Positions 50,632 to 54,357 of a stretch of DNA of 64,000 nucleotides are shown here, in pieces. The stretch spans positions 160,001 to 224,000 of the forward strand of contig OY970172.1 of assembly GCA_963707655.1 (NCBI GenBank). The letters run 5' to 3'. The notes below the pieces were generated by a model, which ran no database searches, was not told the origin of the DNA, and saw only the letters and a list, made by a program, of their open reading frames with translations. A program made the position numbers and the translations under genes. This DNA comes from an uncultured bacterium (GTDB taxonomy: Bacteria; Babelota; Babeliae; Babelales; Vermiphilaceae). Position 1 is the first letter of the stretch. Each line of letters begins with the position of its first letter.

Positions 50632-52086
50632 ATGGCTACTCTTGCTTTTGCAACAATCAAAGAACTCAAAGATAAATTGGAAAAAAAAGAGATATCTTCT
50701 TCTGATCTTCTTGCCCATTCCATTGAACGATTTAAAAAATATGATGTACAATTAGGCTCCGCTTTGGAAGTTTTTGAGCATCAATCAATTCTTAATAAAT
50801 CGAGCAACAAAGGGAACCTTGCGGGTATTCCCGGTCTTGTTAAAGATAATATTGCCCAAGAGGGGCGCGCACTCTCATGCGCTTCAAAAATTTTGTCTAA
50901 TTTTACCTCAACATATGACGCTACAGCAATTGCCCGTCTGAAAAATGAGGGAGCGTTGCTCGTTGGTCGCGCCAACATGGATGAATTTGCCATGGGTAGC
51001 TCTACCGAGACCTCAGCATATTTCAAAACAAAAAATCCATGGGATGCGCAGAGAGTTCCCGGCGGTTCAAGTGGTGGCTCTATAGCAGCAGTTGCCGCTG
51101 GCTTGGTGCCATTCGCCTTGGGTTCCGATACCGGTGGTTCGGTAAGGCAGCCCGCAGCCTTTTGTGGTATCGTTGGGCTTAAGCCAACATATGGTTTGGT
51201 TTCTCGATATGGCTTGGTTGCTTATGGTTCATCTCTTGACCAAATTGGGGTTGCCACCCGTTCTGTGTACGACGCTGCATTAGTTTTATCTGCAATGGCG
51301 GGACAAGATATTAAAGATTCATCAACACTTGCCGCTGAAAAAAAAGATTACACTGACAAGCTCGATGGCAAAATGCCTTCAAAATTGGTCATTGGTGTAG
51401 TGGAAAACGCCGTGAATGCAACGGGAATGGACGAAGAAGTTAAAGCATTGGTTGAGAATGCAATTGTGCAATTGGAAAAATTAGGCGCAACTATCAAACG
51501 TATTACCATACCAAGCATGGATTATAGTGCGGCAGCTTATTTTATTATCAGTCGCGCTGAAGCCGCTTCAAATCTTGCTCGTTTTGATGGAGTGCGCTAT
51601 GGCATGCGTGATAAAAATGCTGCCACATTGGGCCAAATGTATAGCAACACACGTCATGACGGTTTTGGACCTGAAGTAAAAAGCAGAATTTTAATTGGCA
51701 ATTACGTGCTCTCTGCCGGACATGCCGGTGCTTTCTATGAAAAAGCGCGCAATGTACAACGTATGATCCGTCATGAATTTATGGAAGCATTTAAAGACAT
51801 TGATCTTTTAGTCATGCCAACACAACCGGCTCCCGCTTTTGAATTCGGGGCGTTTGATGTAGATAAATTGCAAATGGATTTGCAGGATTATTTTACCTGT
51901 CCCATTAACTTAGCTGGTATTCCTGCGCTTTCAGTTCCCTGTGGTTTCACCAAAAAAGAATCTTTGCCTATTGGTTTTCAATTGGTTGGGCCTCACTTGT
52001 CAGAGGAATTGTTATGCCAGGTAGCACACGCATATGAGCTTTCACAGCCGTGGGCAACAACTCATCCCAAAGCATTTGTAGAGTAA
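50632..52086 (+). CDS. gatA: Asp/Glu-tRNA amidotransferase subunit A
   Basis: KDN, NMDEFAMGSSTE, PGGSSGGS, GSDTGGSVRQPA, EAASNLARFDGVRYG. Confidence 0.98.
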   Translation: MATLAFATIKELKDKLEKKEISSSDLLAHSIERFKKYDVQLGSALEVFEHQSILNKSSNKGNLAGIPGLVKDNIAQEGRALSCASKILSNFTSTYDATAIARLKNEGALLVGRANMDEFAMGSSTETSAYFKTKNPWDAQRVPGGSSGGSIAAVAAGLVPFALGSDTGGSVRQPAAFCGIVGLKPTYGLVSRYGLVAYGSSLDQIGVATRSVYDAALVLSAMAGQDIKDSSTLAAEKKDYTDKLDGKMPSKLVIGVVENAVNATGMDEEVKALVENAIVQLEKLGATIKRITIPSMDYSAAAYFIISRAEAASNLARFDGVRYGMRDKNAATLGQMYSNTRHDGFGPEVKSRILIGNYVLSAGHAGAFYEKARNVQRMIRHEFMEAFKDIDLLVMPTQPAPAFEFGAFDVDKLQMDLQDYFTCPINLAGIPALSVPCGFTKKESLPIGFQLVGPHLSEELLCQVAHAYELSQPWATTHPKAFVE

Positions 52087-52100
52087 GCTATTTAAAAATT

Positions 52101-52133
52101 AAAGAGGCTCGGGATTCCCGGGCCTCTTTTTTT
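52101..52133. terminator. Bidirectional terminator
   Basis: AAAGAGGCTCGGG-ATT-CCCGGGCCTCTTTTTTT. Confidence 0.88.
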
Positions 52134-52158
52134 ATAGTAAACGTTGCTTATATGCTAT

Positions 52159-52488
52159 TTAATTTCCCTTGGGAAAAAAGTAAAAGCCATTGGAATTAGT
52201 TCTTTCGAAAAATTCGGCGGCTGTGAAAGATAACTCGCCGGTATATCCGATGAAGGGTATATGGTAATTCTCTCGGTTTACCGGTGTATGGTGTTTCTCG
52301 TTTATCAGCACTAAGATCTCAGCAAGGGTAGTTTTCTTGGTTATATCTATATCATACGTTGCGGTAGGATCAAACGTTCCGGTATCATTTTTTTGTGCTA
52401 CAAATACTTTAATTATTTTGTGTTGTTCTTCCGCTCCACGAGCCATAGAAAAGCTTGCCAATAAGCAGAGTGCAATCGCTTTAATCAT
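52159..52488 (-). CDS. Secreted small protein, ubiquitin-like pattern (copy 3)
   Basis: Signal + AEE; IKVFV..YDIDITKKTTLAEILVLINEKHHTPVN. Confidence 0.7.
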   Translation of the reverse strand: MIKAIALCLLASFSMARGAEEQHKIIKVFVAQKNDTGTFDPTATYDIDITKKTTLAEILVLINEKHHTPVNRENYHIPFIGYTGELSFTAAEFFERTNSNGFYFFPKGN

Positions 52489-52520
52489 ATCAATTCCCTC
52501 TTTAATAACGATTTTCTATG

Positions 52521-52868
52521 TTATTTAATTGGCTTGGGGAAGAACCCAATGATATCACCCTGAGCTGCGTTAAAAAAATCTTTGACCGTTGCGACCCTCG
52601 TTAGATTGCAGGGTGCTTTTATAATGCTTTCACCGGTATCTCTCACAGCACTTATGCAATATTCGGTTGAATTTAGAGTGTAATTGTGTGCGCTATTCAA
52701 TACCGTTACGAGCTCATCTATGGTACTCTCGCGGGCCATAGTTATCTCAAATAGTTGGTTAAAGCCATTGTTCTGTTGTACAAATACTTTAATTGGTTTT
52801 TGTGCTTCTTCAGCGGCATGAGCCATAAAAAAGCTCGCCAATAAGCAGAGTGTCAATTTTTTAATCAT
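52521..52868 (-). CDS. Secreted small protein, ubiquitin-like pattern (copy 2)
   Basis: Signal + AAEE; IKVFVQQNNG..FEITMARESTIDELVTVL. Confidence 0.7.
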   Translation of the reverse strand: MIKKLTLCLLASFFMAHAAEEAQKPIKVFVQQNNGFNQLFEITMARESTIDELVTVLNSAHNYTLNSTEYCISAVRDTGESIIKAPCNLTRVATVKDFFNAAQGDIIGFFPKPIK

Positions 52869-52878
52869 ATCAATTCTT

Positions 52879-53238
52879 TCATTTTAAGGACTTATGCCAG
52901 AACGCAATAACATTACTATTAGTTTTTCTCAAAACGTCTACCACTGTGTGGGAGGCGAGCGGCGCTGCCGATAGAGTAGGATTGCCTTGATTAAGTTTTG
53001 TACCGTCATTTAATAGCGTGGTTATGAAGTACTCATTGTTGTTTACGGGGCACTTATGGGTATTATTCAATAATGTTTCGAGCTCGATTATTGTAGTGTT
53101 GTTCGTTATATTGAGAGCAAGGGTTTTGACTGTCTTTGTTTTTGTGTACACCAATACTTGAATTTTTTGTGGGGATTCTTCAGCAGCATGAGCTACAAAA
53201 AAAATTACTAACAAGCACAGGGGCATTATTTTAATCAT
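52879..53238 (-). CDS. Secreted small protein, ubiquitin-like pattern (copy 1)
   Basis: Signal + AAEE; IQVLVYTKTKTVKTLALNITNNTTIIELETLLNNTHKCPVN. Confidence 0.7.
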   Translation of the reverse strand: MIKIMPLCLLVIFFVAHAAEESPQKIQVLVYTKTKTVKTLALNITNNTTIIELETLLNNTHKCPVNNNEYFITTLLNDGTKLNQGNPTLSAAPLASHTVVDVLRKTNSNVIAFWHKSLK

Positions 53239-53319
53239 ACCAATTCCTTATATCACGTTGTGTATCAATAGATAATTTAACTAAAGCTATTGTACGGTGA
53301 TTTGTTTAAATGGCAATGA

Positions 53320-53397: not shown

Positions 53398-53496
53398 TAA
53401 AAAACAGCTTTTTTATTTTTACTTGAAAAGAAAAATACACCTTCAGTACACTGTAGTGTGTGGGGCAAGCTTAGGCTTTTGAGCCGGGGTGAGGGT

Positions 53497-54357
53497 ATGT
53501 GGTCGAAAAAAAAAGATCTGATTTACATAATATTTTTCTTTCTGTCATCTGTAAGCATAATAGAAGGCGAGATGCAAAATTCTTGCGTTAAAAAAGGTCT
53601 TGGCTACAAAGAAATTCGTTACCGGCGGGTGCAGGCAGGAAAAAATAAAGATCCTTATATTTTTGCCGACATTTTTAAAGACATTTTTTATTTAAACTAT
53701 AATCTTCTGAGCGTTGATACGTTTAAAGTATTTGTTGGCGTGTTTCCTTTTTATATCGCCGCGCGCATGATTGAGACTCCGTTGCAGAGTAATTTTTATT
53801 GTGGGCAGCATCACAAAAACCTTAAGCAGATGCCTTGGTGGTGTGATGGCGCCGCCCGTTTTGGCTTGGCGCTCCCTTTGGTTGGCTTGGGCAGTCTTGC
53901 TTTTTTTGCACATGATGAAGAGATTCGGCAGACGAGTTGGGCATTTATTTTGGGTATGCCATTTCTGATTTTTGGTAATAAAATAACTAAACGATTTACT
54001 TTTGATGGCTGTGAGCGGCCGTGGCATGAAAAATTCAGTTGCACTAAACGCGCTTGCGGCGGGTTTCCTTCCGGTCATATGGCTGAAGTAACGTATATGG
54101 CCGCCTTATATGGCTCTCGTTTTGGCTACAAATGGGGGATTCCATTGGGTGTTTACGGTGCTTTTGTCGGGGTAAATTTTTTGGTCAGCAATCGCCATTA
54201 TCTTTCACAATTGGTCGGCGGTGTTGGCTGGGGATTAATGTACACCTATGCGGCAAACAAATTGATTGATAGCAAGATGAATAAATATAATATGCGGCTC
54301 TCTATGACCAATGATTTTCGCGGGGCGCCTGCAATGCGTCTTGCTTGTTCTTTCTAA
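53497..54357 (+). CDS. PAP2 family phosphatase
   Basis: K......RP, FPSGH, NRHYLSQ..GG; hydrophobic helices. Confidence 0.82.
   Translation: MWSKKKDLIYIIFFFLSSVSIIEGEMQNSCVKKGLGYKEIRYRRVQAGKNKDPYIFADIFKDIFYLNYNLLSVDTFKVFVGVFPFYIAARMIETPLQSNFYCGQHHKNLKQMPWWCDGAARFGLALPLVGLGSLAFFAHDEEIRQTSWAFILGMPFLIFGNKITKRFTFDGCERPWHEKFSCTKRACGGFPSGHMAEVTYMAALYGSRFGYKWGIPLGVYGAFVGVNFLVSNRHYLSQLVGGVGWGLMYTYAANKLIDSKMNKYNMRLSMTNDFRGAPAMRLACSF

Follow-up and report, generated by a model that had tools for sequence, protein, structure and literature searches.

An array of three small genes at positions 52159 to 53238 of a 64,000-nucleotide stretch of DNA (positions 160,001 to 224,000 of contig OY970172.1, assembly GCA_963707655.1; the whole stretch is referred to here as the window) encodes paralogous proteins with predicted signal peptides and small, divergent mature domains. 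Structural models support a ubiquitin-like (UBL) beta-grasp fold for these domains – a beta-beta-alpha-beta-beta-alpha-beta arrangement spanning the whole domain – and the three proteins (hereafter the trio) are very probably far-diverged copies of ubiquitin. They are probably also, while this falls short of proof, the most diverged members, extreme and fast-diverging, of an exported, non-conjugatable ubiquitin family of the phylum Dependentiae. That family is new here; it belongs to an already known kind, the secreted bacterial ubiquitin homologues.

Three paralogs with conserved signal peptides and divergent mature parts

The three genes are as follows.

Gene 1: 52879..53238, minus strand; 119 aa; signal peptide residues 1-18 (53185-53238); the mature 101 aa form, as modelled, the ubiquitin-like domain.
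Gene 2: 52521..52868, minus strand; 115 aa; signal peptide residues 1-18 (52815-52868).
Gene 3: 52159..52488, minus strand; 109 aa; signal peptide residues 1-18 (52435-52488).

A first-pass annotation of the window, made by a model from the sequence alone, had described three tandem paralogs of 109-119 aa with signal peptides conserved at the DNA level, an A-E-E motif and divergent mature parts. The open reading frames (ORFs) are present at exactly these coordinates, and a search of the genome with the 119-aa protein returns the other two copies (E 1.4e-13 and 3.9e-9); in the alignment of the trio 26 of 124 columns are invariant. All three N-termini consist of M-I-K, a hydrophobic core of ~12 residues, A-H-A (A-R-G in the 109-aa copy) and an invariant A-E-E. 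Judged by eye, the junction between A-H-A and A-E-E fits the -3/-1 rule of signal peptidase I, as would be expected of a Sec-type signal peptide. The C-termini (...HKSLK, ...PKPIK and ...PKGN) bear out a further element of the annotation: none of the three ends in Gly-Gly, and because of this the products cannot be conjugated.

The description of the signal peptides as conserved at the DNA level holds only in part. DNA identity among the trio is 70-81% over codons 1-21 and 52-74% over the following 14 codons, so the contrast is real; however, synonymous divergence (dS) in the signal-peptide codons is already high (dS 0.41-1.27, nonsynonymous divergence (dN) 0.14-0.26; Nei–Gojobori method, NG86), and the conservation is therefore mostly a matter of constraint on the protein, not of recent gene conversion.

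Beyond the signal peptide the proteins differ substantially. The mature parts of the other two copies are 28% and 36% identical to that of the 119-aa copy. Differences include five residues inserted in the first hairpin and, after strands 3-4, a loop of 0-14 residues; in the gene 3 product the strand 1-2 hairpin is longer and the loop after strand 3 shorter. Divergence of the mature parts (NG86) is dN 0.66-0.71 and dS 0.77-1.14, giving a dN/dS (omega) of ~0.6-0.9. With dS this near saturation the ratio was rejected as a test for positive selection. The mature parts nonetheless appear to evolve fast, for a cause that may be adaptive: quick diversification, as proposed in the first-pass annotation, agrees with the mature dN and with turnover of the locus in a sister species (below).

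Two further ORFs of the genome (G000:C1:900459-901049, 196 aa, and 984249-984722, 157 aa) close a signal-peptide-like N-terminus with A-[HR]-[AG]-[AS]-E-E and are otherwise unlike the trio.

The mature domains are predicted to adopt a ubiquitin-like fold

Each protein has a single mature domain of ~90-100 residues, and two of the three were modelled with AlphaFold2. For the 119-aa copy (three-sequence alignment) the best model has a predicted local distance difference test score (pLDDT) of 78.0 and a predicted template modelling score (pTM) of 0.68, the five models ranging from 58.6 to 78.0; for the 109-aa copy (four-sequence alignment) the values are 82.4 and 0.73, with a range of 79.9-82.4. 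The two alignments overlap, each containing all three paralogs. Strands (E) and helices (H) assigned by DSSP in the 119-aa model are E6-13, E19-26, H32-42, E52-59, E64-66, H81-87 and E92-97, and the order of elements in the 109-aa model is the same, strand 3-4 being weaker. Neither model departs from the beta-grasp that had been suggested from the sequence, and the register given with that suggestion (strand 1, strand 2, helix and proline, then a T-V-x-D helix and the last strand) agrees both with AlphaFold and with the family profile alignment described below.

Comparison of the models with 48,161 solved chains (VIA-align) places eukaryotic UBL domains at the top of both lists. The best match of the 119-aa model is the UBL domain of TINCR (Z 8.9, root-mean-square deviation 1.8, 72 of 75 target residues aligned), and the Get5 UBL reaches Z 8.0; for the 109-aa model the best is the Ddi2 UBL (Z 8.5), with TINCR at Z 7.7. 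Among the best 50 rows for each model, titles naming ubiquitin, UBL, UBX, SUMO, ISG15 or Fubi account for 27 (119-aa) and 33 (109-aa). The rest of the listed rows belong for the most part to FERM, RA, tubulin-cofactor, MoaD or transcobalamin proteins, which likewise contain beta-grasp domains. The C-terminal domains of transcobalamin and haptocorrin score Z 7.0-7.1, less than 2 Z units from the top, and MoaD Z 6.3-6.6. Structure-based identity between the trio models and ubiquitin chains is 12-17%.

Other comparisons point the same way. The best PDB rows from Foldseek for the 119-aa model are the USP7 UBL and ubiquitin chains (E 1.8e-3 to 1e-2), and for the 109-aa model searched against BFVD the best rows are giant-virus ubiquitins (E >= 0.04). 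Clusters of ubiquitin and of Rad60-SLD are among the language-model neighbours, with similarities of 0.89-0.90 in one comparison and 0.81-0.86 in the other; these serve as leads only. A reading of the trio as ThiS/MoaD proteins was ruled out by the missing Gly-Gly and the lack of partner genes. UBX domains also figure in the structural lists, but the F-P-K near the C-terminus of the trio does not coincide in position with the loop motif of UBX domains, and a UBX reading was set aside.

An exported ubiquitin-like family in the Dependentiae

Of 261 Dependentiae genomes, 23 give a match to the Pfam ubiquitin model PF00240, 14 of them above its curated cut-off. In most of the listed PF00240 frames the N-terminus looks, by eye, like a signal peptide, and the UBL domain that comes after it lacks Gly-Gly. 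At the near-canonical end of the range are two tandem genes in one genome (G239, 96-97 bits) and a gene in another (G172, 76 bits); many other members are 100-165 aa long and keep a match only to the first 41 positions of the model. Two alignments were made of this family: A6, of 11 diverged sequences taken only from genomes other than that of the trio, and A7, of 16 sequences. The A7 profile matches solved mono-ubiquitin at E ~3e-8, with profile positions 6-53 falling on ubiquitin residues 2-49. At E <= 1e-4 its members occur in 22 of the 261 genomes, including 14 of 79 in the family-level group to which the trio's genome belongs; a word-indexed search with A7 returned 5 proteins at E <= 1e-5, none of them named by its source.

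The trio's own genome holds members of this family elsewhere. The A6 profile finds five paralogs (E 8e-7 to 0.19) in it. Directly downstream of dnaK lies a second tandem array (G000:C1:402704-406122; L136, L137, L139, L141) of five signal-peptide ORFs of 130-179 aa; one of these neighbours, outside the A6 matches, scores E 0.014 with the family profile. A sixth sister paralog is found outside the second array (L138, G000:C1:471840-472223). To none of the six sister paralogs does PF00240 give a match at E <= 1. One of them starts M-I-K...A-H-A, as the trio does.

The family has expanded by tandem duplication; at one end of its range stands near-canonical ubiquitin, at the other are sequences in which only the core pattern is left. 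A full-text search found no published description of signal-peptide ubiquitin-like proteins in Dependentiae, a search that could have missed a mention in a supplementary table.

Two loci of the family have unusual architectures. The adjacent genes at L108 (G239:C9:20222-23434) encode proteins of 363 and 336 aa with an identical signal peptide, a near-canonical ubiquitin domain (96-97 bits with PF00240) and a long extension at the C-terminus. Checked in one of the two, the ubiquitin domain has no Gly-Gly end. At L115 (G178:C2:12256-15426) a signal-peptide protein of >660 aa, in the frame read, shows by eye several consecutive ubiquitin-like segments near its N-terminus, with one PF00240 match.

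The trio is probably linked to this family

A local hidden Markov model (HMM), trained on A6 together with the genome's own five paralogs after removal of signal peptides, was searched over all 3251 ORFs of at least 60 aa. Behind the five training sequences the 119-aa protein ranks 6th (E 9e-4, 16.7 bits), a sister paralog not used in training 7th, the 115-aa copy 8th (E 0.034, 11.7 bits) and the 109-aa copy 9th (E 0.22, 9.1 bits). Two controls were run: among the 3251 ORFs in reversed form the best reached E 0.063, and of 1000 shuffles of each mature protein none attained the real score (maxima of 8.4, 8.1 and 7.2 bits vs 16.7, 11.7 and 9.1). The controls are clean, although the margins of the link are narrow.

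Comparison of profile with profile gives a second line of evidence. An alignment of the trio plus one metagenomic relative, P0004 (A5; see below), compared with A7 by hhalign gives P 4.8e-5 and a probability of 68%; the 77 aligned columns span the domain from its second strand through its final one. This alignment is in register with the predicted structure, which counts for a link and against convergence. In the alignment to the family profile the trio's T-T-I-x-E-L helix start and H-x-x-P-V-N fall on the T-T-V-x-D-I-K and E-G-I-P-V-x-Q-Q of the family, the register given in the first-pass annotation. When the genomes were searched with the A6 profile, the trio was absent from the matches at E <= 10.

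Direct searches with the trio and its distribution

Searched directly, the trio is close to alone. PF00240 (cut-off 25.4 bits) has no match at E <= 1 to the trio or anywhere in its genome. Word-indexed searches of 5.8 billion proteins returned only the three proteins themselves, plus P0004 once it was included in the query. An exhaustive HMMER search of 1.84 billion representatives gave 6 proteins at E <= 1e-3: three were the trio, one was P0004, and the last two, long proteins made of repeats that Pfam assigns to the cadherin-like and BspA-LRR types, were discarded as summed chance matches. P0004 (112 aa, E 8.9e-7), on a 678-bp metagenome contig, has the architecture of the trio and is its sole real outside relative among these representatives. 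Scans of JGI metagenomes and of viral contigs for the trio produced 175 and 66 pattern matches respectively, and 0 were confirmed in either.

As for homologs in related genomes, which the first-pass annotation had suggested counting, the trio profile has no convincing relative in the 260 other Dependentiae genomes. Weak matches occur at eleven places (E 1.3e-4 to 0.57), of which all but L007, L009 and L010 (E 0.12-0.57) were read; at seven the frames contain stops or are apparent pieces of unrelated housekeeping proteins, and none of these is a relative. An ORF at 261024-261482 (E 0.024 with the trio profile) was dropped as it looks like a spurious frame.

A genome of the same genus (G001) is informative about the locus. 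Its gatA and PAP2 genes are 75-76% identical in DNA to those that border the array, and the trio is absent from the slot between them, where there is instead a signal-peptide ORF of 258 aa that is unrelated and matches nothing in Pfam (L103:3068-3937, C1). Since the sister species has a different gene in the gatA-PAP2 slot, the locus is a site of turnover. Elsewhere in G001 (C51, L095:1426-1680), at the eighth of the weak-match places read, an 84-aa ORF has a short T-I-S-L segment and a signal peptide closely resembling that of the trio, which ends A-H-A followed by S-E-E. Its other residues are rich in Cys and do not resemble the trio; the ORF may be a remnant or distant relative.

Organism and export route

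The source genome is a single contig of 1,091,075 bp (88.6% complete by marker count, 41% G+C). The closest GatA sequences, at 71% and 70% identity, come from metagenome-assembled genomes labelled Dependentiae (Vermiphilaceae) and Babeliales; outside the phylum the identity is 45-50%. Cultured Dependentiae are obligate intracellular parasites of protists. The host-dependent life supposed in the first-pass annotation thus fits both the GatA similarity and the 1.09 Mb genome, which also holds 32 ankyrin-repeat matches in 20 open frames.

The genome contains a type II secretion-like cluster (G000:C1:880001-893200, genes at ~881.5-890 kb) with two secretins (812 and 888 aa) and GspC-like (T2SSC plus PDZ), GspD-N0, PilM-like and T2SSM-like genes, preceded by a MoxR-type AAA ATPase. 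With this cluster present, a route from the periplasm to the outside is plausibly encoded. Signal peptides have been tied to effector export before in this phylum: in the account of Chromulinavorax, 44% of coding sequences carry them, which its authors read as an effector route (PMC6561590), and for Babela massiliensis the relevant part of the genome paper describes secreted ubiquitin hydrolases, Ulp1-like proteins with signal peptides, and F-box and RING proteins, interpreted by its authors as exploitation of host ubiquitin (PMC4378268). Searches of the trio's genome for OTU and UCH gave no match; control genomes also lacked a signal, so these blanks are uninformative.

Comparison with known ubiquitin-like proteins

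The trio resembles several known groups of proteins and differs from each. Its predicted topology is that of eukaryotic ubiquitin and the integral UBL domains of PF00240 (Ddi2, Get5, Dsk2, TINCR, UBX), which supply the best structural matches, and integral UBL domains, like the trio, are without Gly-Gly. Unlike the PF00240 UBLs, the trio falls below Pfam thresholds, has a Sec signal peptide and the variable 0-14-residue loop after strand 3-4, and is not fused to other domains.

With the Dependentiae family represented by A6 and A7 the trio shares a signal peptide plus one UBL domain, a length within 100-165 aa, the lack of Gly-Gly, the common occurrence of tandem arrays, the helix pattern T-T-I/V ... 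P-V and a C-terminal helix-strand motif. Members of that family, however, have a recognisable E-G-I-P-x-x-Q-Q and reach Pfam or PDB ubiquitin, whereas the trio does neither; its mature N-terminus (A-E-E) and its loop also differ.

Two published bacterial systems are comparable. The BfUbb and BoUbb proteins of Bacteroides are, as they are characterised in the portions of PMC3352274, PMC5705921 and PMC11467351 that deal with them, bacterial, exported, free-standing ubiquitin folds with no use in conjugation, as the trio would be. By the same accounts BfUbb is 63% identical to human ubiquitin (PMC3352274), whereas the trio has no directly detectable similarity, and BfUbb is a single gene in a free-living gut bacterium and kills related strains, whereas the trio forms a tandem array in an obligate intracellular parasite whose genome also holds the six sister paralogs. 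The second system is that of Babela massiliensis, likewise one of the Dependentiae, where proteins derived from the ubiquitin system lie behind signal peptides and are again read as host-directed. They differ from the trio in that they are enzymes (C19 ubiquitin hydrolases, fusions with Ulp1-like peptidases) or components of ligases (F-box, RING), and the part of the paper that describes them mentions no ubiquitin-like protein (PMC4378268).

A possible function and its alternatives

We favor, at slightly less than even confidence, a role for the trio as host-directed decoys or adaptors drawn from the exported UBL family of the Dependentiae. According to this hypothesis the proteins would be exported to the periplasm by Sec and cleaved after A-H-A, and would then cross the outer membrane by the encoded type II secretion machinery or in vesicles. 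Outside the bacterium the free UBL domains could act as non-conjugatable decoys or adaptors for host proteins that recognise ubiquitin or UBLs – autophagy adaptors, proteasome or sorting receptors, or deubiquitinases, for example – and so might weaken the attack that the host directs, by way of ubiquitin, at the parasite or the vacuole around it. The duplicated genes and their rapidly changing surfaces would then answer to several different targets or to an arms race. A more specific version, which we hold possible and clearly less likely than the general one, is that Dependentiae took ubiquitin from their protist hosts and built from it a large, tandemly duplicating, fast-evolving family of exported, non-conjugatable decoys, of which the trio would be the most eroded branch known; released into the host cell, these proteins would jam ubiquitin receptors of xenophagy, proteasomal or endosomal-sorting pathways.

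Were the decoy hypothesis correct, its significance would be as follows. Attacks of intracellular bacteria on the host ubiquitin system are known to use ligase mimics and deubiquitinases; a phylum-wide set of exported UBL proteins would amount to host manipulation by the ubiquitin molecule itself, not by ligases or deubiquitinases. The family would also constitute a natural series of ubiquitin drift with the fold kept. The trio domains, being small and easily expressed, would be candidates for finding the host ubiquitin receptors that matter in conflict between protists and bacteria. As the trio also shows, orphan small secreted proteins, of which Dependentiae have many, can be placed when fold prediction is used together with profiles made for the lineage.

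A number of observations weigh against all or part of this hypothesis. With respect to ancestry, no Pfam model matches the trio, the best being sub-threshold noise (Vps23_core, E 0.08; NusG_II, E 0.024); NCBIfam gave nothing useful; and the trio profile A2 searched against PDB sequences finds only a capsid protein at E 1.3. The link to the family is weaker in other forms of the comparison: hhalign of the trio (A2) with A6 gives P 1.6e-3 and a probability of 16%, a local search with A6 only gives the 119-aa copy E 0.055, the 109-aa copy taken alone (E 0.22) is within noise, and in the reverse direction the trio profile does not recover the sister paralogs. As for the fold, both models come from shallow alignments of 3-4 sequences, Foldseek finds no PDB match to the 119-aa model at E <= 0.001, and by VIA-align's stated background best Z values of 7-8 are common for models without a true match. 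Since the observed Z values are near that background, the weight of the fold assignment rests on match lists that are uniform and full-length and on the agreement of two models. With respect to function, dN/dS is below 1 with saturated dS, and F-box-like and C48 proteins are not Pfam-detectable in the genome. Finally, BfUbb, the only secreted bacterial homologue of ubiquitin known to have been studied experimentally, is presented as an antibacterial protein that acts on a periplasmic peptidyl-prolyl isomerase (PPIase) and not as a host effector (PMC11467351); because it acts on other bacteria, a role in the host cannot be assumed from the fold.

The alternative that survives best, which we regard as less likely than the decoy hypothesis but as a serious rival to it, is that the trio resides in the periplasm or envelope: the UBL domains would be exported by Sec and retained, serving as binding modules for envelope enzymes or for transport or secretion machinery, or as chaperone-like adaptors, and their ubiquitin ancestry would be irrelevant to their role. 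A Sec signal alone, as textbooks have it, takes a protein no further than the periplasm; the array is flanked by gatC-gatA, the PAP2 phosphatase and a phosphoribosyltransferase, with neither a secretion signal of the effector type nor a dedicated partner gene next to it; and the structural matches include beta-grasp domains other than ubiquitin, namely transcobalamin/haptocorrin and MoaD at the Z values given above. A housekeeping role, however, predicts conservation, yet the trio is not convincingly found in the 260 other Dependentiae genomes, a different gene occupies the slot in the sister species, and the mature parts are down to 28-36% identity. The family, moreover, derives from eukaryote-type ubiquitin, for which we know of no periplasmic partner.

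A further alternative is that the proteins are not relatives of ubiquitin at all: they would be lineage-specific, orphan small secreted proteins, and the fold and profile matches would represent convergence on a common small alpha/beta arrangement. We consider this improbable. It is in keeping with the failure of every direct sequence search with the trio to reach a known family, with Z values of 8-9 that are near the background for best matches, with an alignment depth of 3-4 sequences and with the low probability of the first hhalign comparison. Against it, two separately run paralog models agree in fold (their overlapping alignments notwithstanding) and UBLs dominate the match lists at full domain length; of the 3251 ORFs, leaving aside the training sequences, the family profile places all three proteins within the first four, with scores reached by 0 of 1000 shuffles; the aligned register is that of the predicted secondary structure; and a signal peptide of similar M-I-K...A-H-A form recurs in the genome's other paralog array.

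Least probable of all is that the trio are weapons of the BfUbb kind, taken up by competitors in the same host cell to poison a periplasmic target, with the paralogs differing in specificity: homologues of BfUbb are described as species-specific antagonists in the relevant parts of PMC11467351 and PMC5705921, and tandem, fast-diverging copies suit the pattern of polymorphic toxins, but no immunity-like or uptake-related gene adjoins the array, contact with competitors is limited for an obligate intracellular parasite whose genome is 1.09 Mb, and BfUbb is 63% identical to ubiquitin (PMC3352274) where the trio has no detectable identity. In architecture the trio and BfUbb coincide: BfUbb reportedly has a signal sequence and lacks a Gly-Gly end.

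Layout and surroundings of the array

The three genes constitute a single, tightly packed operon, with intergenic gaps of 10 nt (genes 1-2) and 32 nt (genes 2-3). Each of the three ATGs has a purine-rich ribosome-binding site 5-10 nt on its 5' side, and the sequence GGAATTGAT preceding the ATG is the ribosome-binding region common to the trio; that of gene 2 (AAAGAA) abuts the stop codon of gene 1. G+C content of the array (0.36-0.40) is the same as that of the surrounding DNA. Two further features flank the genes.

Promoter-like site: 53289..53316, minus strand; TTGCCA, a 16-nt spacer and TACAAT; 10 of 12 consensus matches; 51-78 nt upstream of the gene 1 start.
Hairpin: 52101..52129, no strand assigned; 13 bp, G+C-rich, with A and T runs on both flanks.

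Promoter-like sites across the region number 5, against 5.3 expected from shuffles, and the site upstream of gene 1 is thus not significant alone. The hairpin was found on the plus strand and lies between the converging gatA (end 52086) and gene 3 (end 52159); it is probably a two-way terminator, in which case it would be used on the minus strand also.

No E1-like (ThiF/MoeB) or sulfur-transfer partner gene adjoins the array, the neighbours being gatC, gatA, the gene for the PAP2 protein and that for the phosphoribosyltransferase. The product of the PAP2 neighbour (53458-54357, plus strand) is a phosphatase of the PAP2 superfamily (299 aa, E 1.4e-7) whose N-terminus is hydrophobic; the gene is conserved beside gatA in the sister species too.

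Metagenome contigs of 151-223 nt from soil, rhizosphere and peat runs belonging to three studies are identical to pieces of all three genes (pieces within 52081-53026). Assembly of the array is thus reproduced in public runs, one of which may itself be the source sample. One metagenome run carries T>C at 52305 and at 52334, which change the 109-aa protein at two residues (I62V and K52R).

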